From Longimicrobiales bacterium (lineage in GTDB: Bacteria > Gemmatimonadota > Gemmatimonadetes > Longimicrobiales > Gaopeijiaceae): 64,000 nt of DNA. The stretch spans positions 480,001-544,000 of the forward strand of contig JAWLHJ010000003.1 in the NCBI GenBank assembly GCA_041690395.1. Reading direction: 5' to 3'. Of this stretch, positions 48,937 to 63,908 are shown piece after piece (the stretch's first letter is position 1; each line of letters begins with the position of its first letter). The translations under genes and the position numbers were made by a program. Under the pieces are notes generated by a model. It was not told the DNA's origin. It searched no databases and was given only the letters and a program-made list of their open reading frames with translations.

Positions 48937-48975
48937 GTTCCTGTTCCTCGATTGCGTAGGGGGGGATCGCTGCAG

Positions 48976-49059
48976 TGCCGGGGGCGGGACTCGAACCCGC
49001 ATGGGATTGCTCCCGGGGGATTTTAAGTCCCCTGCGTCTACCGATTTCGCCACCCCGGC
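48976..49059 (-). tRNA. tRNA-Leu (anticodon TAA)
   Basis: GCCGGGG/CCCCGGC acceptor stem, discriminator A, anticodon arm GGGGA-CT-TAA-AA-TCCCC, long variable arm, GGTTCGAGTCC T arm; CCA not encoded. Confidence 0.97.
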
Positions 49060-49213: not shown

Positions 49214-49272
49214 TTGTCCGACTTGTATGACAGTGCTATACATCTGGCGCACTTGTATGACAACGTCAGGCA
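49214..49272 (+). promoter_or_regulatory. Putative promoter/operator of PadR-permease operon 1
   Basis: ACTTGTATGACA repeated at 49221 and 49251, each in an imperfect palindrome; overlaps TTGTCC-N17-TATACA. Confidence 0.6.
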
Positions 49273-49288
49273 TCTTGGAGTAGCGCAC

Positions 49289-49630
49289 ATGGCCCCCACC
49301 GTTCTCGGACAGTTCGAGCACCAGGTACTCCTGGCGATCCTCCGCCTCGGCTCCGAAGCCTACAGCGTGGAGATCGTCTCGGAGCTGGAGCGCAGCACCG
49401 GCAAGGAGGTAGCCACGTCGGCAGTGTTCGTTTCGCTGCGGCGCATGAAGGCGAAGGACCTGCTCCTGGATAGGATGGTGGAGCCCGGGGAGGAAGGAGG
49501 CCACTCGCGACGCTACTTCCGGCTCACCGAGGAGGCCCTCGACGCCCTGCGTGCCTCGCGCCAGAGCTTCCTCAAGCTCTGGGACGGCGTGGAGGCGGCC
49601 CTCGACGAGCCACGGCCTGACACGCCATGA
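49289..49630 (+). CDS. PadR-family transcriptional regulator
   Basis: [38 protein letters not shown] before ATG 49289. Confidence 0.9.
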
Positions 49631-52284
49631 CCGACTGGGAAGTTGGGTCGGGTCCGCCCAAGCTGGCCCGACGACTTCTGGCCCTGCTGGTGGACGAGGC
49701 GCAACGCGACGACGTGGATTCGACCCTCGCGGAGCTCTTCCGTGAGCGGGTGGCCCGAGATGGCGCAGGTGCGGCGACACGATGGTACTGGCGCCAGGTG
49801 GGCGGATTCGCTGCGCGCTGGCGCCCATTCAACACGGGAATGGGGGGGTGGACGACGATGGACATGTGGACCAGAGATCTCCGGCACGGGCTGCGCTCGC
49901 TGATCCGCGCACCGGGCTTCACACTCATCGCCGTGGGGACGCTGGCGCTGGGCATCGGTGCCAACACCGCCATCTTCAGCCTGATCGCGGGCACCCTCCT
50001 GAGACCCCTTCCCTACGACCAGCCCGAGCGGCTGGTCTGGCTCTCCGATGGCCACCCGAACTTCGGGGGTGGGGGCACGAACCAATCCGTCCCCAACCTC
50101 ATGGATCTGCAGGCGGGCTCCCGCCTCATGAGTTCGTCGGCCATCTACCGGGTCCTGGGCGGCAACCTCGCCACCGACGAGGACGCGGTGCGCATCCCGA
50201 TCCTGTTCACCTCGTCGCCGATGCTCGGCGTACTGGGTGTTCCGCCCCGCCTGGGGCGCGACCTGCTTCCTACCGACGACGGCGCGGGCGCGGAGCCCGT
50301 GGCGATCCTCACCGATGATCTCTGGCGGTCCACCTTCGGCGCCGACCCCGACGTGGTCGGACGAACGGTACAGGTGGACGCCCGGCCGGTGCGCGTCATC
50401 GGGGTGCTTCCTCGCGACTTCACTTTCGAGGACGATCCCAAGCTGGTCATGGCGCTCCAACACCTGGGCGCCGACCTGAGCCGGGGGGGCAGAGGCTACA
50501 ACGGAGTGGCCCGCCTGGCCCCAGGCGCTGACCCGAGGGCACTCACCGCCGAGTTGCAAGGCATCTTCTCAGGTCTGACCGACGAGTACCCGCAGGTGAA
50601 CGAGGGGTGGTTCACCATGGCCGAGCCTCTTCAGGAGCATGTCATCGGACAGAACCGTCATTCGCTGCTTCTCCTGGGCGGTGCGGCGGCCCTCGTGCTC
50701 CTCATAGCCTGCGTCAACGTCGCCAACCTGCTGCTGGTCCGGGCCGAGCGACGTCACCGGGAGTTGGCGGTGCGGTATTCCCTGGGGGCCCGTAGGTCGG
50801 GGCTCGTCTCCCTATTCCTCTCCGAAGGTCTGGTCCTGGGCCTGGCCGGAGGCGCGCTGGGGGTCGCCGGGGCGTACGGGGGCATCGACCTGCTCGTGTC
50901 CCTGTACGGCAGCACCCTGGCTCGAGCCGACGCCGTCGGCATCGACGGAACCGTCCTTGGCATCACTCTGGCGACGTCCCTCCTGGTGGGCATCGGGGTG
51001 GGGCTGGCCCCGCTGACCCGCGTGCGCCCTGACGAGCTCCAGGGCCACCTCCGAGAAGGCGCGCGGGGCTCCTCGGGACGCGGCAGCCGGCTGGGCAACG
51101 CCCTGGTCGTGGCGGAGGTGGCCCTCTCCGTCGTAGTCGTGGCCGGCGCCGGGCTTCTGGCCAACAGCATGTGGCGTCTCCAGCAAGTGGACCTGGGTGT
51201 GCACCGCGCCGACCAGGTCATGACCTTCACGCTGTCCCTGCCTGCGGCAGCGTACCCCACGTCCGAGACGATCGCGCAGTTCACCGGTGAGCTGGATGGT
51301 CGACTGATGGCCACCCCCGGGGTGGAGGCGGTGGGCTTCGTGAACCGGCTCCCTCTCGTGGGTGGGGACAACACCACCGTCTACGTGTGGGGCGACGAGG
51401 AGCGGAAGGCCGACTTCACGTCCATCCGCTCCATCACGCCCGGGTACTTCGACGCCGTTGGTGTCCCCCTCCTGTCGGGCCGATGGCTCACCGAGGATGA
51501 GTTCCGTGGGGAGACCTCGTCGGCGATCATCAACCAGACCCTCGCCCGACAGCTCTTCGGTTCGGAGGACCCCCTGGGACAGCGGATCGACGTCCGCGGG
51601 ATCGAAGGAGGTCTGGTCGTGGTGGGCGTGGTCGCCGACATCGCCGGGGGACGCCCGGACCGTCCGGCACCCGGTGCCTTCTACTACCCCATGCGCACGC
51701 GGCTGAAACTCGCGGCGTCCCAACCGCGCTCCGCCGACGACTTCTGGGGCATGGCCGCCCTCGTCCGGACCGCGGGTGAGCCCCAGGCGCTGGTTCCCGC
51801 CTTACGGGAGGCGGTGGGCGCTGGAGACCCGGGCATGCCCTTGAGCTACGTCCGCACCCTCCAGGACATCGCCACCGACCGCCTGGGAACCCGTCGCTTC
51901 GCCTTGTCCCTGTTCGGTGTCTTTGCCGGCCTCGCACTGCTCTTGGGTACCGTGGGAATCTATGGCGTCATGTCCTACAGCGTGGCCCAACGCGCCCGCG
52001 AGATGGGGGTGAGGATGGCCTTGGGGGCCAGCCGGGGATCGGTGCTCCGTCTGGTCCTGGGCGAGAGCGCCCGCCTCACCGTTCCGGGAGTGATCCTGGG
52101 CCTGTTGGGCGCCATGGCGTCGGCGCGGGTGCTGGGCAGCCTCCTCTTCGAGGTCAGCCCGCTCGACCTGTGGACGTACGCATCGGTGGCCGCGGTCCTG
52201 GCGTTGGTCTCCGTGGCGGCCACCTGGCTCCCGGCATGGAGGGCCACGCGGGTGGATCCCATGACGAGCATGCGCGCTGAGTAA
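49627..52284 (+). CDS. Duplicated MacB/FtsX-type ABC permease (ADOP family)
   Basis: [72 protein letters not shown]. Confidence 0.93.
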
Positions 52285-53589: not shown

Positions 53590-54774
53590 CTACCCCACCC
53601 AGTGCTCCACAGGCTTCGCAAGGAACTCCTCCACGGGGATCCCGTCTCCGCCCACCACGAGCACGCGGTCAGCGTCGAACCGCCGGCGGAAGGACTCGAG
53701 GCCGGAGCGTCTGGCGGCCGCGCCGGTGCTCTTGACCTCGATCGCGGTCAGGGTGCGCCGGTGCTCCACCACGAAGTCCACCTCCTCGTCCCGGTCGCGC
53801 CAGTAGTACACGTCGCACGTGCCGCCGAGGGCCGCGTTGACCAGATGCGCGCCCACCGCCGACTCCACGAGCCGTCCCCACCACGCCTTGTCGGCCCGGG
53901 CCTCATCCGCATCATAGCCGGACTGGGCCGATACCAGCGCGGTGTTGAACACCTGGAGCTTGGGACTGGAGGCACGGCGCCGTACGTGCTCTCCGGCATA
54001 CTTCTGAAGGCCGGTGACCATTCCCGCTCGAGACAACAGGTCGAGGTAGTGGGCAAGCGTCGTGGTGTTTCCCGCATCCTGGAGTTGGCCGAGCATCTTG
54101 TTGTAGGACAGGATCTGGCCGGAATACCGGCAGCCCAGGTCGAAGAGCCTTCTCAGGAGGGCGGGCTTGTCGACACGGGTCAGCAGGAGCACATCCCGCG
54201 CGAGGGTGGTCTCGATGAGGGACTCCCGGATGTAGCGGGCCCAACGATCCGAGTCGTCGATGAGCGGCGCGGCGCCCGGATACCCTCCGAAGAAGACGTG
54301 CTGCTGGAAGCCCCAACCGAAGGCCTCGGCCATCTCCGTCATCCCCCAATGCGGGAGGTGGATGATCTCGAAGCGACCGGCCAAGCTCTCGGTCAGTCCC
54401 ATCTCGATCAGCCACGGAGCCGATCCGAGTAGGACCACCTTGAGCTTGCTCCCGGCGCCGGTATCCTCGTCCCAGAGTCGCTTCACCGACTCCGCCCACC
54501 CGGCGGCCTTCTGGACCTCGTCGATGACCAGCACCCCCGCACCACGGCCCGCCTCGAGACGGGCGGCGTGCCACTGCTCCGCGAGCCAACCCTCGCCCCG
54601 TAGCGTCGGCTCGTCGGCGGACGCGAAGCGGACGGGCACGCCGGTGCCACGGACGACCTGGCGGACCATGGTGGTCTTGCCCACCTGACGCGGGCCGGCT
54701 ACGACCTGGATGAACCGGCGCGGCTCCGCCAGGCGGCGGGCGAGGACTTCTGCCTGGGGACGTGTGTAGGTCAC
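53590..54774 (-). CDS. AAA+ ATPase with winged HTH and DUF4143-type PD-(D/E)XK domain
   Basis: GPRQVGKTT, IDEVQ, LGS, ESLAGR, GGYP, YLDLL, GRLVESAV, YWR...EVDFV....AIEVK. Confidence 0.9.
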   Translation of the reverse strand: MTYTRPQAEVLARRLAEPRRFIQVVAGPRQVGKTTMVRQVVRGTGVPVRFASADEPTLRGEGWLAEQWHAARLEAGRGAGVLVIDEVQKAAGWAESVKRLWDEDTGAGSKLKVVLLGSAPWLIEMGLTESLAGRFEIIHLPHWGMTEMAEAFGWGFQQHVFFGGYPGAAPLIDDSDRWARYIRESLIETTLARDVLLLTRVDKPALLRRLFDLGCRYSGQILSYNKMLGQLQDAGNTTTLAHYLDLLSRAGMVTGLQKYAGEHVRRRASSPKLQVFNTALVSAQSGYDADEARADKAWWGRLVESAVGAHLVNAALGGTCDVYYWRDRDEEVDFVVEHRRTLTAIEVKSTGAAARRSGLESFRRRFDADRVLVVGGDGIPVEEFLAKPVEHWVG

Positions 54775-54778
54775 AATT

Positions 54779-54818
54779 TACTCAGTATGGTGAGTAGTTT
54801 TACTCAATATGCTGAGTA
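54779..54818. promoter_or_regulatory. Tandem palindromic operator, 2 x TACTCA-N6-TGAGTA
   Basis: Boxes 54779-54796 and 54801-54818 (22-bp period), 4 nt from the GTG start at 54774. Confidence 0.8.
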
Positions 54819-54856
54819 CTACGGCCATGTCCAGTGACTCGTCCCGCCAGAAGATC

Positions 54857-57526
54857 CTACTCCTCCCGCAGCGCCTCCGTCGGCGCGATGCGCGTCGCCC
54901 GCAGCGCCGGCACGAGCGAGGCCGCCGTCCCGACCAGCAGGAGCCCCAGGGGGAGCACGGTGAACGTGACCGGATCGTTCTCCGAGACGCCGAACAGGAG
55001 CGAGGCCACCAACTCGCGGGCGAACCACGCCCCCGAGAGCCCGAGCAGGAGCCCCAGCACGACGGGCCGCACGCCCTCCCCGACGATCATGCGCGTGACG
55101 GCGTGCCGCCCGGCGCCCAGGGCCACGCGGATCCCGATCTCGCGGGTGCGACCGGCGACCGAGTACGACACGACGCCGTAGATACCCACGGCGGCGAGGA
55201 CGAGCGCGATCGCCGCGAACAGAACGAGGAGCGTGGTCACGAGCCGGGTGTCGGCATAGGCCGCGGTCACGGTCTCCTCGAGGGTGGTCACGTCATAGAG
55301 CGGGAGGTCGGCGTCGAAGTCCGCGACGGCACGGCGCACGGCCTCGTTCACGGTCTCCGGTCCGAGGGGGCTCCGCACGGCGACCTGATAGGTGCGGGGG
55401 AAGCCGTAGGCCGAGATCCCCGATTGGTGCGCCGGGAGATACACCTGCGGATTCGCGGCCTGGTCCACGCGGGTGTTCACCTGATCGGGGACGACGCCGA
55501 CCGCGGTGATCCACGTGGTCGCCGAGTCTCCCGTCGGATAGGCCCACCGCTTTCCGACGGCGCTCTCCCCGGGCCAGAAGGTCCGGGCCATGGTCTCGCT
55601 GACGATGCCCACCATGGCCCCGTCGGCGCGGTCGGCTTCGGTGAAGCCCCGCCCCTCCAGCACCGGGATCCCCAGGGCCTCGAAATAACCCGGGAGCACG
55701 AGGGCGATCTCCGCGCTCCAGGCCTGGTCCCCCTCCTCGCGAGGTGGACGGTCGTCGAGGAGGAAGTCCCACCGGGACGAGCTCCTCGAGTAGGGGAGCG
55801 CCGAGCTGGCGGCCACCGCGGTCACGCCCGGCAACGCCCGGAGGGACTCCACCATGCGGCCCATGTCCTCCGGCGCCTCGTCGTCCTCGGGATAGGACGC
55901 GGCCGGGAGGCTGACGGTGAACGTGAGGACGTTCTCCACCTCGAGTCCGGGATCGGCGGCGGTGAGCGCGGCCATGGTCCGGCCCATGAGCCCCGCCACG
56001 ATGACCACCACGAGCCCGAGGGCCACCTCACCCGTCACGAGCGCACGGCGCAACCTGGAGCGGGCGCGGCTCCCCGTGGACCGCGAGCCGGCCACGGCGA
56101 CCGACCGAGCGACCTTCCGACTCGCGAGGAGCGCCGGCGCCACGCCGAAGAGAAGGGTGGTCGCCACCGCCGCGGCCAGAGCGAAGAGGAGGACCGTGCC
56201 GTCCACCTGCACCTGGTCCAGCCGCGGAAGCGCGCCCGGATCCATGGCGATGAGCAGCCGCGTCCCGCCATACGCCAGAGCCAGGCCCAGCACGGCGCCA
56301 CCCGCCGCCAGAAGAAGCGACTCGGTCACCAGCTGCCGCGTGATGCGGCCGGCACCGGCCCCGAGGGCCGCCCGCACCGCCACCTCCGCGTGCCTGCGCT
56401 CACCCCGCGCCAGCAGGAGGTTGGCCACGTTGGCGCATCCGATGAGGAGGACCAACCCGACCGCGACCGAGAGGGAGAGCAGGATGCCCGGCGCGTCACC
56501 CAGCATATCCGCCTTCAGCGTCGCGGCCCAGGCGAAGTGAGCCACATTGTGCTCGAACTCCTGGGCCCATCGGTCTCCGATCAGGGTGAGCTCCGCGTCC
56601 AGGTCGGCCTGGGTCACCCCGGCTTGCCTGCGCCCCACCGCGCCCCACCCGTGGGCGCCCCGCCCGTAGCCCGACGCGGCCGCACGGTCGATCCCGAGGG
56701 GCAGATACGCTTCGGCCATCCCCGGAAACGCGAAGCCCCCGGGCATGACGCCCACCACCCGCGTGGCCTCACCGTTCACGTCGAGGGAGGTCCCGACCAC
56801 CTGCGGGTCGCCCCCGAACCGGCGCTGCCAGAGGTCGTGCCCCAACACGATGACCGGCGCCGCACCCGGGGTGTCGTCCTCGGCGGTGAACCACCGTCCG
56901 TGCAGGGGCGTCACGCCGAGAACGGGAAACATGTCCCGGGAGAAGAGCCCCACGGCCACGCGCTCGGCCTCGGCGCCGTCTCCGGTGAGCGTGCGGGTGG
57001 AGTTCGTCCACATCCCCAGGCGCTCGAAGCCTCGCACGCCCTCCTGGATGTCGTAGAACTCCGGCACCGAGAGGAAGAACTTCTCGATGTCGAAGCCGGA
57101 GGCCGGGAGGTACCGGGTCCAGACGATGGAGAGGCGGTCGGGCTCGGGATACGGTAGGGGCCGGAGCAGCACGGCGTTCAGGACGCTGAACACGGCCGTG
57201 CCCGCTCCGATGGCCACGGCGAGGGTCAGCACCGCGGTGGTCGCGAAGGCCGGCGCCCGGCGGAGCTGTCGCCATGCGAAGGCCAGGTTCTGCCGCGTCT
57301 CGTCCCAGAGGTGCCCTATCGTCGTCTTCATCTCCCGTCCCCTCCCCTGTTGGCGCATCCTCGCCTTCACCCGGTCCAGGTCCCCGAGGCGGCGCAGCGC
57401 CTCGGCCCGGGCGTCGTCTTCACTCCACCCCTGCCCGACCAGCTCCCTCACACGCATGTCCACGTGGAAGCGGAGCTCCTCCTCCACCTCCCGGTCCAGG
57501 GACGGACGCTCGATGCGCGGGTCCAC
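54857..57526 (-). CDS. Duplicated MacB/FtsX-type ABC permease (ADOP family) with N-terminal prefix domain
   Basis: EVEEELRFHVDMR..ARAEALRRLGD prefix; TLAVAIGAGTAVFS, LIGCANVANLLL, GIYGVVSYSV, REIGIRVALGA. Confidence 0.93.
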   Translation of the reverse strand: MDPRIERPSLDREVEEELRFHVDMRVRELVGQGWSEDDARAEALRRLGDLDRVKARMRQQGRGREMKTTIGHLWDETRQNLAFAWRQLRRAPAFATTAVLTLAVAIGAGTAVFSVLNAVLLRPLPYPEPDRLSIVWTRYLPASGFDIEKFFLSVPEFYDIQEGVRGFERLGMWTNSTRTLTGDGAEAERVAVGLFSRDMFPVLGVTPLHGRWFTAEDDTPGAAPVIVLGHDLWQRRFGGDPQVVGTSLDVNGEATRVVGVMPGGFAFPGMAEAYLPLGIDRAAASGYGRGAHGWGAVGRRQAGVTQADLDAELTLIGDRWAQEFEHNVAHFAWAATLKADMLGDAPGILLSLSVAVGLVLLIGCANVANLLLARGERRHAEVAVRAALGAGAGRITRQLVTESLLLAAGGAVLGLALAYGGTRLLIAMDPGALPRLDQVQVDGTVLLFALAAAVATTLLFGVAPALLASRKVARSVAVAGSRSTGSRARSRLRRALVTGEVALGLVVVIVAGLMGRTMAALTAADPGLEVENVLTFTVSLPAASYPEDDEAPEDMGRMVESLRALPGVTAVAASSALPYSRSSSRWDFLLDDRPPREEGDQAWSAEIALVLPGYFEALGIPVLEGRGFTEADRADGAMVGIVSETMARTFWPGESAVGKRWAYPTGDSATTWITAVGVVPDQVNTRVDQAANPQVYLPAHQSGISAYGFPRTYQVAVRSPLGPETVNEAVRRAVADFDADLPLYDVTTLEETVTAAYADTRLVTTLLVLFAAIALVLAAVGIYGVVSYSVAGRTREIGIRVALGAGRHAVTRMIVGEGVRPVVLGLLLGLSGAWFARELVASLLFGVSENDPVTFTVLPLGLLLVGTAASLVPALRATRIAPTEALREE

Positions 57527-57538
57527 GACCGGTCTCCG

Positions 57539-57874
57539 TCAGCCTGTTCCGAGCACCCGGCTCACCGCGCCCGAGAACGACGCCCACGCCTCGATCTCGG
57601 CCTCCAGACGGGCCCGCCCCTTGCGGGTAAGGTGGTAGAACTTCGCTCGGCGCTCGAGCTCGGAGACGCCCCACTCGGAGCGGAGAAGGCCCTTCTTCTC
57701 CATCCGATACAGGGCCGGGTAGAGCGAGCCCTCCTCCACCCTGAGCGCCTCGTCGGTCTCCTCCTCCAGCCAGCGGGCGATGGCGTAGCCGTGGCGAGGT
57801 CCGTGAGAGAGCGTCTTCAGGATGAGCGTGTCCAGCGTCCCGTGCAGGAGCTGGTTCCGTTCCCGCGGCGTCAT
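57539..57874 (-). CDS. PadR-family transcriptional regulator (acidobacterial type)
   Basis: LLHGTLDTLILKTL, HGYAIA, EEGSLYPALYRME, WGVSE..RRAKFY. Confidence 0.94.
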   Translation of the reverse strand: MTPRERNQLLHGTLDTLILKTLSHGPRHGYAIARWLEEETDEALRVEEGSLYPALYRMEKKGLLRSEWGVSELERRAKFYHLTRKGRARLEAEIEAWASFSGAVSRVLGTG

Positions 57875-60862: not shown

Positions 60863-60906
60863 ATGCTAGAAGGGAGGCGGTTACAGCCCGATTACTGGGG
60901 GATTAC
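60863..60906 (-). promoter_or_regulatory. SARP-type activator site: three heptamers at 11-bp period followed by a -10 box
   Basis: Minus strand GTAATCC-N4-GTAATCG-N4-GTAACCG-N9-TAGCAT; no -35 consensus. Confidence 0.75.
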
Positions 60907-63900
60907 CGGCGGGACCCGGCGGAGCCGGGCGGTGGGGTTCCACCTGCCCCGGCGCGCAACTCGTCGTACAGGGCGACCGTGGCCCGGTCGGGCTCGACGC
61001 CCAGCTCGTCCCGGAGGAGGACGCGGAGGGTCTCGTAGAGACGGAGTGCCTCGGTGCGGGCGCCGGTCCGCGCCATGCAGACCATGAGCTGCCGGCCCGC
61101 CTCCTCGTGCAGTCGGTCCGACGCCAGAACGGTCCGGAACGCCTCCGCGGCCGGCGCGAACCGCTCCCGCGAGACCTCGAAGAGCCCCAGCGCCATGAGC
61201 GCGTCGTGGCGGCATCTTCTCAGCCGCTCACGAAGCTCGAGGTGCCAGTCCCCGGCCGTCTCCCCCTCCAGGAAGTCCCCCCGGTAGAGGGCCAGGGCCG
61301 CCCGGAGGCGCTCCGCGGCATCGGACCGGTCCAGGGGGCGGCGGAGGATCGCTTCGATGCCCCGCTCGAACCGTTCCACGTCGAAGTCGACGGTGAGACT
61401 CGAATCCAGGCGGTAACGGTCGCCAGCCACCACGATCCAATCGGGACGGCCCAGGGCCTTTCGCAGACGATGCAGCGTCACGTGGAAGCTGTTCTTCACC
61501 TGCGACGCCGACGCGTCCGGCCAGAACGCCAGCCCGACCTGCTCGCGGGTGCGACCGTCCGCATGGCACAGGAGGAGCAGCAGGAGCTCGCGAGGCTTAC
61601 CGGACACGAAGGCCTCGCCCGGCAGGGGGCGCTCACCCACCAGGATCTCCAGTGGGCCGAGGGCCCGAACCCGAAGATCCGCCTCGTCGGACGGGCCGAA
61701 CCCCATAGGATCCGGAACGACCTCACCGGCGGCGTCCTGGTCGGCCTCCTTGTCCGGGCCCCCGACGACCGGGGTCGCGGGATCGACCGGCGAGCGCACG
61801 ACCGTCGACAGGATCGCTTGAACGGACGTGGCGGACCCCTCCGCCCGGGCACCCTCGAACGTCCCGGCGCCGAGGCCGTCTCGGAGGTCGTCCACCAGGC
61901 GCTGGCGCTCCGCCTGTTCGTGCGGGGCCGGCACGGCGCCGATGTCGGAGCGGATCCCGTCGGCCGCGCCCATGAGACGGGCCGCGAGCTCCCCCTGCCC
62001 CCGCATGGCCAGGAGCAGCGTCCCCACCTCGGCGGCCTGCAGGAGGCCCCACCGGTCTTCGTGGCGGAGCAGGAGCGGAATCGCTTCCGCGAGACACTCG
62101 CGAGCGCCGTCCGGGTCGCCCTGCAGCATGAGCGTCCGGGCCAGAGCGGTGAGCGGATGTCCGATGCTCGGATGGCTCCCGAAGCGCCGCGCCACGCCCA
62201 CCGAGGTCTGGTAGGCTGCCCGCGCCGTGTCGAGATCGCCGTGGGTCTGGGCAACCACCCCCCGCCAGTAGCTTCCGAACGCGTAAAGGAGCGCCCGCGG
62301 GAAATCGTCCGGAGGGAAGCGAGCGGGATCGCCGAGGGCGGCCTCCGCCTCGCCGAACAGCCGCCCCGAGGTGCCCGCGTCACCTCCCAGCCCCACGATC
62401 GTGGCGAGGCCCGACAGGGCGAAGGCCAGGTCCGTCGGCGCGCCCTCCGTCCGCAACAGCTCGACCGCCTCCTCCATGGGGCCCCGCACCGCTCCGTGAT
62501 CCCCCATCCAGAAGGCCAGGTACCCCAGGGCCGTCAGCGCACGTCCCCGAAGCCGCGGCGATGCGGAGCCGTCCGTGGCCAGGGCGGCTTCCAGCCGGCG
62601 ACGGGATTCCCCGAAATGACCGACGGCGAAGTGGAGCCAGTGGAGGGCCGCGCCGAACCGGAGCTCCAGCACGGCCCGCGCTTCCCCCTCCGCGCACCAC
62701 GCCATGGCCGCCCTGAGGTTCCCGTGCTCCCGCTCGAGGCGGTTCATCCAGGGCGTGCCGCGTGTGCCCCCCAGCACATGGGGCTCGGCCGTCTCGGCCA
62801 GATCGAGGAAGAAGCCGGCGTGGCGCCGTCGTAGCTCCTCGACGTCGTCACCCTCCAGGAGGCGTTCCTGGGCGTACTGACGCACGGTCTCGAGGAGCGC
62901 GTAGCGAGCCTCTCCCTGTTCCTCGCTCACCGCCACGAGTGACCGGTCGACGAGGCCCGAGAGCAGGTCCAGCACGTCCTCTGGACGGATGGGCTCGTAG
63001 GCCGTCACGGCTTCCGCCGCGTCCAGCGTGAAGCCGCCAGCGAAGACGGAGAGCCGCCGCATGAGGCATCGCTCTTCCGACGAGAGGAGCGTGTAACTCC
63101 AGTCGATGAGCGCGCGGAGCGTCCGGTGGCGCGGCAACACGACGTGAGAGCTGCTCGAGAGCAGATCGAGCATGGAGTCGAGGCGGCCGGCCAGCTGCTC
63201 CGGCGACAGCACGCGCAGGCGGGCGGCAGCGAGTTCCAGGGCCAGGGGAAGCCCGTCCAACATCCGGCAGATGCGGACCACGGCGGAGGCGTTCTCGGCG
63301 GTGAGCGTGAAGCCGGGCATCGCGTCCTGCGCACGCTCCACGAACAACCGCACCGAAGCCGCCTCGAGAGCCGCCGGGGTGTCTCCGGCCGGAACGTCCA
63401 GAGGCGGCACCGGCCAGACCTTCTCTCCGGCGATGCCCAACGCCTGGCGGCTGGTCACGACGACGTGCAACGCGGGACAGTCCCGTAGAAGCGCGTCCAC
63501 GAGCCGCGCACAGGCCTCGATCAGGTGCTCGCAGTTGTCCAACACCAGAAGGGGCGAACCCTCCCCCAGAACGTCCGCCAGGATCGCGAAGCTGGTGGCC
63601 CCCGCGTGCTCCCGGAGCCCCAGGCTGCAGGCCGCATGCTCGCCGACGAGCTCGGGCTCCCGGAGGGTCGTCAGGTCGATCCAGGCGACCGGGGTGTCGG
63701 GGCGACTTCCCACGGCTTCCGCCACCGCAGCGGCGAGACGGGTCTTTCCACTGCCTCCTGCCCCCACGAGGGAAATCAGGCGGCGACTCCGGAGGAGACG
63801 ACGGATCTCCGCGATCTCCCGGTCGCGACCGACCTGGGCGGTGAGGTAGGCAGGGACCCGGGCGGACGCGGGAAACGCGGTCGCTCGGGCACGCATGCGC

Positions 63901-63908
63901 GAGGGCAT
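60903..63908 (-). CDS. STAND-type ATPase / TPR / C-terminal OmpR-like HTH + BTAD transcriptional regulator
   Basis: GAGGSGKT, LVLDNCEHL, LDGLPLALELAAAR, RHRTLRALIDWSY; TPR-like region; LRVRALGPL, FWPD, LHRLRKALG, LYRGDFL, ELGVEP. Confidence 0.9.
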   Translation of the reverse strand: MPSRMRARATAFPASARVPAYLTAQVGRDREIAEIRRLLRSRRLISLVGAGGSGKTRLAAAVAEAVGSRPDTPVAWIDLTTLREPELVGEHAACSLGLREHAGATSFAILADVLGEGSPLLVLDNCEHLIEACARLVDALLRDCPALHVVVTSRQALGIAGEKVWPVPPLDVPAGDTPAALEAASVRLFVERAQDAMPGFTLTAENASAVVRICRMLDGLPLALELAAARLRVLSPEQLAGRLDSMLDLLSSSSHVVLPRHRTLRALIDWSYTLLSSEERCLMRRLSVFAGGFTLDAAEAVTAYEPIRPEDVLDLLSGLVDRSLVAVSEEQGEARYALLETVRQYAQERLLEGDDVEELRRRHAGFFLDLAETAEPHVLGGTRGTPWMNRLEREHGNLRAAMAWCAEGEARAVLELRFGAALHWLHFAVGHFGESRRRLEAALATDGSASPRLRGRALTALGYLAFWMGDHGAVRGPMEEAVELLRTEGAPTDLAFALSGLATIVGLGGDAGTSGRLFGEAEAALGDPARFPPDDFPRALLYAFGSYWRGVVAQTHGDLDTARAAYQTSVGVARRFGSHPSIGHPLTALARTLMLQGDPDGARECLAEAIPLLLRHEDRWGLLQAAEVGTLLLAMRGQGELAARLMGAADGIRSDIGAVPAPHEQAERQRLVDDLRDGLGAGTFEGARAEGSATSVQAILSTVVRSPVDPATPVVGGPDKEADQDAAGEVVPDPMGFGPSDEADLRVRALGPLEILVGERPLPGEAFVSGKPRELLLLLLCHADGRTREQVGLAFWPDASASQVKNSFHVTLHRLRKALGRPDWIVVAGDRYRLDSSLTVDFDVERFERGIEAILRRPLDRSDAAERLRAALALYRGDFLEGETAGDWHLELRERLRRCRHDALMALGLFEVSRERFAPAAEAFRTVLASDRLHEEAGRQLMVCMARTGARTEALRLYETLRVLLRDELGVEPDRATVALYDELRAGAGGTPPPGSAGSRR

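Follow-up and report, generated by a model that had tools for sequence, protein, structure and literature searches.

AbiEi, of the AbiE type IV toxin-antitoxin system, is described as repressing its own promoter through inverted repeats (PMC7319586, available text), and BrxR is presented as a winged-helix repressor with inverted repeats beside the -10 element (PMC9122601, available text). Less well understood is PDC-S01 of the PADLOC collection, which is ranked as the fourth most common defence candidate in the available part of a survey that also states that most PDCs still await validation (PMC12988326). When one PDC-S01 was challenged with T4, T5 and T7 in E. coli, it fell outside the four candidates that the available text gives as protective (10.1101/2024.09.26.614923), and S01 goes unnamed in the main text, as available, of the PADLOC source preprint (10.1101/2024.01.29.577857). 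One of its domains, DUF4143, is classed as PD-(D/E)XK (PMC3424549).

Two other groups of described systems have to be kept in mind here. Orc1-type proteins load on DNA in helical phase. Phages, in turn, are known to use nucleic-acid decoys, such as the pseudo-ToxI repeats of phage phiTE and the Racr repeat mimics; these act as RNA, and each mimics one ligand. Decoy DNA binding sites are said, by the title of a paper (PMC8599769), to be a further kind.

The present locus combines features of these systems. A 40-bp double palindrome overlaps the predicted promoter and start of a PDC-S01 gene. We consider it probable that the predicted winged helix of the gene product binds this palindrome and thereby shuts off its own transcription; an array on phage contigs, which may serve as a decoy, belongs to the same reading. 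No description of an operator, of self-regulation or of a phage counter-measure of PDC-S01 was found in the open-access and bioRxiv literature. The features are compiled in the table.

Table. Features of the PDC-S01 gene and its upstream region (positions in the window)
Feature	Position	Strand	Remarks and basis
PDC-S01 / COG1373 gene	53590..54774	-	394 aa, GTG start; profile matches and model
Domain order of the 394-aa protein			AAA_14 ATPase, helical lid, winged helix, DUF4143 PD-(D/E)xK-type domain
Walker A, G27-PRQVGK-T34	54673..54696	-	translation; family alignment
Walker B, LVIDEVQ (D85, E86)	54511..54531	-	translation; family alignment
Predicted winged helix-turn-helix, residues 221-275	53950..54114	-	model secondary structure, structural alignment, clade conservation
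Winged-helix elements			helices 224-230 and 237-249; wing strands 253-256 and 272-275 (model)
Nuclease-type motif, E331-V-D333 ... E346-V-K348	53731..53784	-	family alignment
Operator box 2, TACTCA-N6-TGAGTA	54779..54796	.	perfect half-sites; ends 4 nt before start codon
Inner dyad, TGAGTA-N4-TACTCA	54791..54806	.	best-conserved core; sole part kept in sister clade and many phage arrays
Clade consensus -10 position (TAAAAT)	54797..54802	-	reads TAAAAC here; predicted
Operator box 1, TACTCA-N6-TGAGTA	54801..54818	.	perfect half-sites
Alternative sigma-70-like promoter, TGGACA-16-CATATT	54806..54833	-	-10 = box 1 spacer; 1 found, 0.1 expected; predicted

The window, i.e., the whole stretch of 64,000 nucleotides that was analysed, stems from a genome of 4,329,812 nt in which the gene is single-copy. 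By every sequence test the gene is a member of PDC-S01, a family that an earlier annotation from the letters alone had not named. The PADLOC profile PDLC04791 aligns practically from end to end (residues 3-393 versus 2-394 of 395, E 2.3e-173), and AAA_14 (22-147) and DUF4143 (193-349) are the Pfam families above cut-off. A first-pass annotation, made from the letters alone, had seen Walker A and B motifs, a central HTH-like segment and an EVDF..IEVK-type motif; all of them are present and conserved. Across 138 aligned family members G27, G32, K33 and E331 are invariant, while E304, D333, E346 and K348 are conserved to at least 90%. Within the clade that carries the double box, the predicted recognition region is near-invariant, and K226, M227, G229, G235, N236, T239, Y243 and L247 are identical in 95 of 95 proteins.

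The structural comparison was based on a model built from an alignment (pLDDT 95), the fold predicted from the single sequence being uninformative (pLDDT 42). The model best resembles the archaeal ATPases 2QEN (PAB2304) and 2FNA (SSO1545), both with a Z of 16.8; Orc1/Cdc6 2QBY scores lower (Z 14.5, rmsd 9.0, 250 aligned residues). These matches cover residues 1-286, the winged helix at about 221-275 included, and barely probe the C-terminal domain. A sequence search of the PDB with the protein yielded nothing significant.

The first-pass annotation had also reported two perfect boxes with a period of 22 bp, 4 nt away from the GTG at 54774, and their position was confirmed. Its other remarks on the region hold as well. 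The patch is AT-rich (48 nt at 33% GC versus 68% for the gene), an AGGAGG-type Shine-Dalgarno sequence is absent before the GTG, and the box differs from the sites of both PadR genes, whose upstream regions by inspection carry other repeats. With up to two mismatches, the window contains 2 box matches against 0.21 expected; the entire source genome contains 2 perfect boxes, both of them here, none with one mismatch and 14 with two. A 44-bp profile built from homologues scores 66.9 bits at this site and 0.3 at the best other position of the genome. The half-site is really about 9 bp long (TTTACTCAA/TTGAGTAAA), and the whole 40-mer forms one dyad centred on the central N4.

Some observations on the surroundings may be added. 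The PDC-S01 gene is flanked by two pairs of a PadR gene and an FtsX/MacB permease gene (window 49214-52284 and 54857-57874), which face each other; both PadR genes have an upstream repeat of their own. A tRNA-Leu(TAA) gene is found at window 48975-49059, and no duplicated end that would mark an island was detected near it. A STAND-like NTPase-TPR-BTAD regulator of 1,001 aa is encoded at 60903-63908. Elsewhere in the genome (C1:680155-680198, L346), weak look-alike half-sites with another spacing lie over the start of a small unrelated gene, labelled by eye as resembling a ribbon-helix-helix protein.

A search upstream of close homologues had been proposed as a check of the annotation's claim of self-repression. 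A total of 110 loci was compiled from the best 80 genome-contig matches and 30 from the own phylum, the window included, and 107 of them had enough upstream DNA. The double box, at up to 6 mismatches of 24, precedes the gene at 95 of these 107, against a single match in 819,866 nt of other flanks; the remaining 12 are sister-clade genes with altered sites. Its carriers span 19 phylum-level groups, some entries being near-copies, and throughout these groups the same site goes with the PDC-S01 clade. A few plasmids carry close homologues, with the site or a variant of it. A homologue on a Coxiella plasmid (L187), for instance, has variant half-sites, TGTTCA/TGAACA, about 60 nt upstream. The homologue of Thermus oshimai (L184) shows a compensated box 1, TACTAG/CTAGTA.

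Scanning 301 genomes of the own phylum for the 40-mer at up to 3 mismatches gave 21 sites, one per genome, and none for the reversed pattern. Twenty of them lie directly upstream of a PDC-S01 homologue, one before a peptidase-like gene. In metagenomes, where at least 120 exact sites exist, 81 of the 120 listed abut a PDC-S01 gene, 6 abut a remnant and 33 have no remnant; 22 of these 33 are firm orphans, flanked on either side by 300 nt or more. No regulon unites the orphans, and several are placed between convergent genes. Perfect orphan double boxes without any gene remnant were seen on chromosome-like contigs (L363, L365, L371, L376, L388, L401, L408 and others), and L371 has four boxes in phase. 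Internally deleted gene copies also occur (L422, L425, L406, L327), in which the operator, the 3' end or both are retained.

The presence of the box at unrelated genes would speak for the site of another regulator. It was found in part: roughly one fifth to one quarter of the exact sites are orphans, yet a regulon common to them did not emerge. The orphans thus weaken a strict one-to-one link between site and gene but do not point to another regulator. That the boxes belong to an unrelated host protein, e.g., a neighbouring PadR, is extremely unlikely in our opinion. Two PadR genes within 4.5 kb and the orphan sites upstream of unrelated genes may invite the idea; the PadR upstream repeats, however, differ from the box, and a foreign regulator would hardly be met with one site per genome and with the PDC-S01 clade throughout 19 phylum-level groups that have neither a neighbour nor a regulon in common.

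How is the site built? Among the 95 loci the half-sites are perfect in 55 (outer left), 75 (inner left), 77 (inner right) and 69 (outer right) cases. The sister clade retains mainly the inner dyad, and six loci possess a third box in phase. The junction of the boxes reads as a -10 element (TAAAAT), with its T in 84, its A in 93 and its last T in 73 of the 95 loci; a TTG is found 16-18 nt upstream of this hexamer in 53. As predicted from these sequences, box 1 would fill the spacer of the promoter and box 2 would cover the transcription start site. In 54 of the 95 loci the first in-frame start codon is located inside box 2, 8 or 11 nt past the -10, and we infer that these homologues are leaderless or nearly so. 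The annotation had suggested a leaderless transcript for the window gene. This suits the 54 homologues but probably not the window copy, which starts 14 nt further downstream and has TAAAAC at the -10 position. Whichever of the two predicted promoters of the table applies, the boxes cover the predicted promoter of the window gene.

Palindromes may, of course, also fold, and the boxes could work as hairpins, in RNA or in single-stranded DNA, with a role in translational control or as a nuclease substrate. A stem of 6-9 bp is conceivable for each box, box 1 has 6 compensated changes where 2.5 are expected (p 0.03, with kin that are not independent), and spacers 1 and 2 resemble each other within a locus more than by chance. 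Half-site changes are, however, mostly one-sided (46-88 versus 1-10 two-sided, a roughly 7- to 40-fold excess), which is expected of a protein site and not of a hairpin. Moreover, an mRNA would contain part of one stem only, since the predicted start site is inside box 2. We regard hairpins as very unlikely.

The alternative that we favour, binding of the protein itself, can be described as follows. Protomers would load on the half-sites in helical phase, as Orc1-type proteins do, with a period of 22 bp here and of 32-33 bp in distant paralogues, and would be centred on the -10. In the operator-bound state expression would be low and the nuclease likely off. If this state were lost or titrated out in the course of an infection, a toxic nuclease would be freed. 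That the PDC-S01 protein represses its own promoter by means of its winged helix is a conclusion in which we have good confidence. The odds are about even that the protein acts on its own as a defence or addiction nuclease and is held off as long as it is bound to the operator.

The annotation's proposal of self-repression has thus gained from the linkage of box and gene across phyla, from the single site per genome, from the overlap with the predicted promoter and from the near-invariant predicted helix; it has not gained much from covariation of helix and box, which had been suggested as a check. In 1,296 pairs of distant paralogues, which are not independent of each other, the partial rho does not exceed 0.11, the highest values being seen in the wing and the recognition helix. 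GNTTTLA is retained in a fused sister clade although the site there is another one, which speaks against a match between helix and box. Distant paralogues nevertheless have repeats of their own: a lag of 32-33 was best in 32 of 111 upstream regions, versus 0 of 107 downstream regions and 1 of 444 upstream regions of other genes. Two genomes (G329 and G337) contain 31 DUF4143 matches each, many of the paralogues with private 32-33-bp repeat arrays and several on one contig.

The unit reaches from about -35 to the stop codon and has no partner gene. The scan of nearest neighbours covered 75 of 79 calls upstream and 84 of 89 calls downstream, near-duplicates and one mis-call being dropped. They are mostly housekeeping genes, and none is conserved among the 75 upstream and 84 downstream genes, which indicates a single-gene system; by raw count some 20 of the 159 are toxin-antitoxin, restriction-modification, CRISPR, paralogue or mobile genes. 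When occupied and empty sites were compared in three genera, a cassette from about -35 to the stop codon proved to be gained and lost; these comparisons, all between diverged genomes, revealed no clear target-site duplication. For the window locus itself an empty site was not obtained: the downstream neighbour was found in just 2 of 40 relatives, and one search with a flank matched nothing beyond the genome that the flank came from. The comparison of homologue loci detected neither terminal repeats nor a box nor conserved DNA after the stop codon.

Sister clades are organised differently. In one of them (L073, L100-L104, L112-L142) the PDC-S01 gene runs into the beginning of a P-loop NTPase gene at 33 of 45 loci, the product measuring 1,373 aa in L073; this is the clade that retains mainly the inner dyad. 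In other members (L105-L110, L141, L149, L150) PDC-S01 is fused to a tail of 450-530 aa, and most have an outer TGTAA...TTACA palindrome. Neither the partner NTPase nor the fused C-terminal tails gave a Pfam or PADLOC match.

The cassette of promoter and PDC-S01 gene could also be a selfish mobile unit. The boxes would then be its cis-site, on which an Orc1-like ATPase-HTH loads, while the nuclease cuts or primes a recombination that moves promoter plus gene; self-repression would be secondary and the function would not be defence. Much of the genomic distribution can be read this way. Homologues are patchy: of the 301 genomes searched in the own phylum, 44 have one. In the gene tree (77 proteins, FastTree) the phylum label changes 33 times, where 18 changes would be the minimum and shuffled labels need 52.7 on average. 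Also in agreement are the up to 31 paralogues per genome, the random housekeeping neighbours, the sharp ends at -35 and stop codon that emerge when occupied and empty sites are compared, the basal position of gene-less Balneola alleles relative to the occupied ones, and the internally deleted copies that retain the operator. On the other side, there is no terminal repeat or box past the stop codon, and the one clean empty site is only slightly operator-like (14/27, in AT-rich DNA). Nor is it obvious what a phage would gain by storing a mobilisation site among those of AbiEi and SoFic. We judge this alternative to be unlikely.

This brings us to the phage-borne copies of the site, which the first-pass annotation had not noticed. 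Eight IMG/VR contigs contain the exact 40-mer, and all eight lack PDC-S01 on the contig DNA examined. Seven are related tailed phages with terminase large subunit, portal, DnaB and replication initiator; they are L475, L476 and L478-L482, to whose array group L551 belongs as a more distant member. The box resides in a non-coding spacer of 528-1,340 nt, between a gene for 175 aa and terL. There it is one of many modules, single sites of 20-45 bp set end to end in a shared order, which are gained or lost between isolates and whose half-sites are kept while spacers and neighbours vary. Each array contains 9-21 inverted repeats, versus 4-8 in shuffled sequences. A viral search via a different module yielded 121 loci, 33 of which share the array; the exact inner dyad is present in 14 of these 33 and in none of the 88 others. 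Often a single outer half-site accompanies it there, so that the inner dyad again stands out as the core. The eighth contig, L477 (L349:1373-1412), is an unrelated phage with portal and major head genes and has an exact double box between convergent genes. In L479 (5058-5525) a MUG113/T5orf172 plus HTH_3 gene is inserted in the array, beside a module that matches XRE-HTH upstream sites (L525, L529); the genes linked to the latter are of the kind labelled 'mobile mystery protein A'.

To what do the other modules correspond? The arrays were compared by BLAST with 301-361 genomes from the family to which G330 belongs (Chitinophagaceae, going by the tree label). The best matches are the double box: of 13 examined, 8 lie upstream of PDC-S01, 2 upstream of an N-terminal fragment, and 3 are orphans. 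The TGTCCAG...CTGGACA module has 9 matches, 6 of them no more than 30 nt from the start of an AbiEi (DUF6088) gene, and two more modules precede two other AbiEi clades, which makes three. Another module overlaps the start region of a SoFic gene, and one precedes HTH_3 (XRE-HTH) genes. The modules assigned in this way are a minority of the array. Counted by loci, 8 of 29 are AbiEi upstream sites and 21 are without a defence gene; in a separate set of 8 new loci one belongs to SoFic and 7 to none. The BLAST matches without a defence gene are likely due to chance. So, mostly, are the sites found when one phage module was used as a search pattern that tolerated one mismatch; of 30 examined, 23 lie inside ORFs and one is operator-like. 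Against the 111 upstream regions of paralogues the phage modules did not score above shuffled sequences (12-mers: 5 versus 5.1).

The array may be a decoy, and we rate the chance of this as approaching even. As the phage genome amplifies, it would soak up several host DNA-binding defence proteins at once. The phage would profit only if the operator-bound protein is inactive, as is assumed here, because titrating a repressor should raise the expression of the defence gene. Since AbiEi is known to bind inverted repeats of its own promoter, the company that the PDC-S01 site keeps in the phage supports it as the operator of a defence protein. At the level of sequence, the array thus points independently to a role of PDC-S01 in phage conflict.

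A bolder version is tentative. Freshwater-type tailed phages would carry an "operator sponge", in which some 20 host sites are gained and lost like spacers and several self-regulated defence proteins are disarmed; the contents that can be named are PDC-S01, at least three AbiEi clades, SoFic and an XRE-HTH system. Operator DNA would be the antitoxin of PDC-S01, which would be off while bound to the box and fire when the box is lost, and the phage would supply hundreds of copies to keep the nuclease off. If this were true, the array would be a ready list of uncharacterised host genes that truly act against phage.

The array might also have nothing to do with decoys, a view that we find doubtful but worth serious attention. 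It could be a sensor board for host repressors that hold the terminase operon down, as they might in a lysogen, or a graveyard whose promoters stem from genes once inserted at this hotspot and then deleted. Its place directly upstream of terL, the one isolate with a MUG113/T5orf172-HTH_3 gene inside the array, and the fact that chromosomes hold orphan operators too would agree with this. Remnants of PDC-S01 coding sequence, however, are not found on the array phage contigs, and neither a board nor a graveyard readily accounts for single short modules that adjoin one another in a shared order and preserve their half-sites amid variable spacers and neighbours, or for the restriction of the exact inner dyad to array-sharing loci in the search that started from another module.

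Why should one care? PDC-S01, for which no mechanism is known, ranks with the most abundant defence candidates of bacteria and archaea. Its operator, once defined, offers a direct handle on binding, repression and ATP dependence, and it suggests a reason why activity may be missed when the coding sequence is cloned on its own. From the sequence side, the array is independent evidence of selection on phages to carry the PDC-S01 site, and it ties PDC-S01 to the validated AbiE-type systems. It may represent an undescribed kind of DNA-decoy anti-defence, whose remaining modules point to further host defence regulators; our search of the open-access and bioRxiv literature found no description of such a phage array.

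When the locus is compared with what has been described, the PADLOC family itself comes first: the window gene shares with PDC-S01 the full-length profile match and the stand-alone fusion of an ATPase with a PD-(D/E)xK domain. With AbiE it has in common the inverted repeats over its own, here predicted, promoter, the AbiE locus being repressed by its own winged-helix protein, and AbiEi upstream sites co-occur with the PDC-S01 operator in the phage array. PDC-S01, however, is a single ORF without AbiE domains and without separate genes for an antitoxin and a nucleotidyltransferase toxin; regulator and putative effector are united in one polypeptide, with the ATPase between them. BrxR and the WYL repressors resemble it by the inverted repeats near the -10, and the PDC-S01 of a sister clade heads an operon with a large P-loop NTPase (33/45 loci). 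In contrast to them, PDC-S01 has no WYL domain (no match at E up to 0.01) but ATPase and nuclease motifs, and in the clade of the window it is a lone gene. By analogy, PDC-S01 would work like AbiE or BrxR in its regulation, while belonging to neither.

SSO1545 (2FNA), PAB2304 (2QEN) and Orc1/Cdc6 (2QBY, 2V1U, 1W5S) share the AAA+/helical/winged-helix layout of residues 1-286, and phased repeats beside a gene are reminiscent of ORB and iteron arrays. The identity to these proteins is, however, only 10-16%, and PDC-S01 has an extra C-terminal domain of nuclease type. Unlike Orc1/Cdc6, a core initiator that is vertically inherited, it is patchy and horizontally spread (44/301 genomes, with phyla mixed in the tree). 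From insertion sequences and transposons it differs in that the unit lacks terminal repeats at both ends.

The phage array, finally, resembles the phiTE pseudo-ToxI and Racr decoys in being a non-coding repeat array that imitates the host ligand of a defence protein, and, as in a phage anti-defence decoy, the copy of the ligand is phage-borne without the cognate gene (8/8 viral contigs). Unlike these RNA decoys, it consists of double-stranded, operator-like DNA for several unrelated systems. It may be categorically new, whereas the feature in the window would be a self-regulated gene of the defence type.
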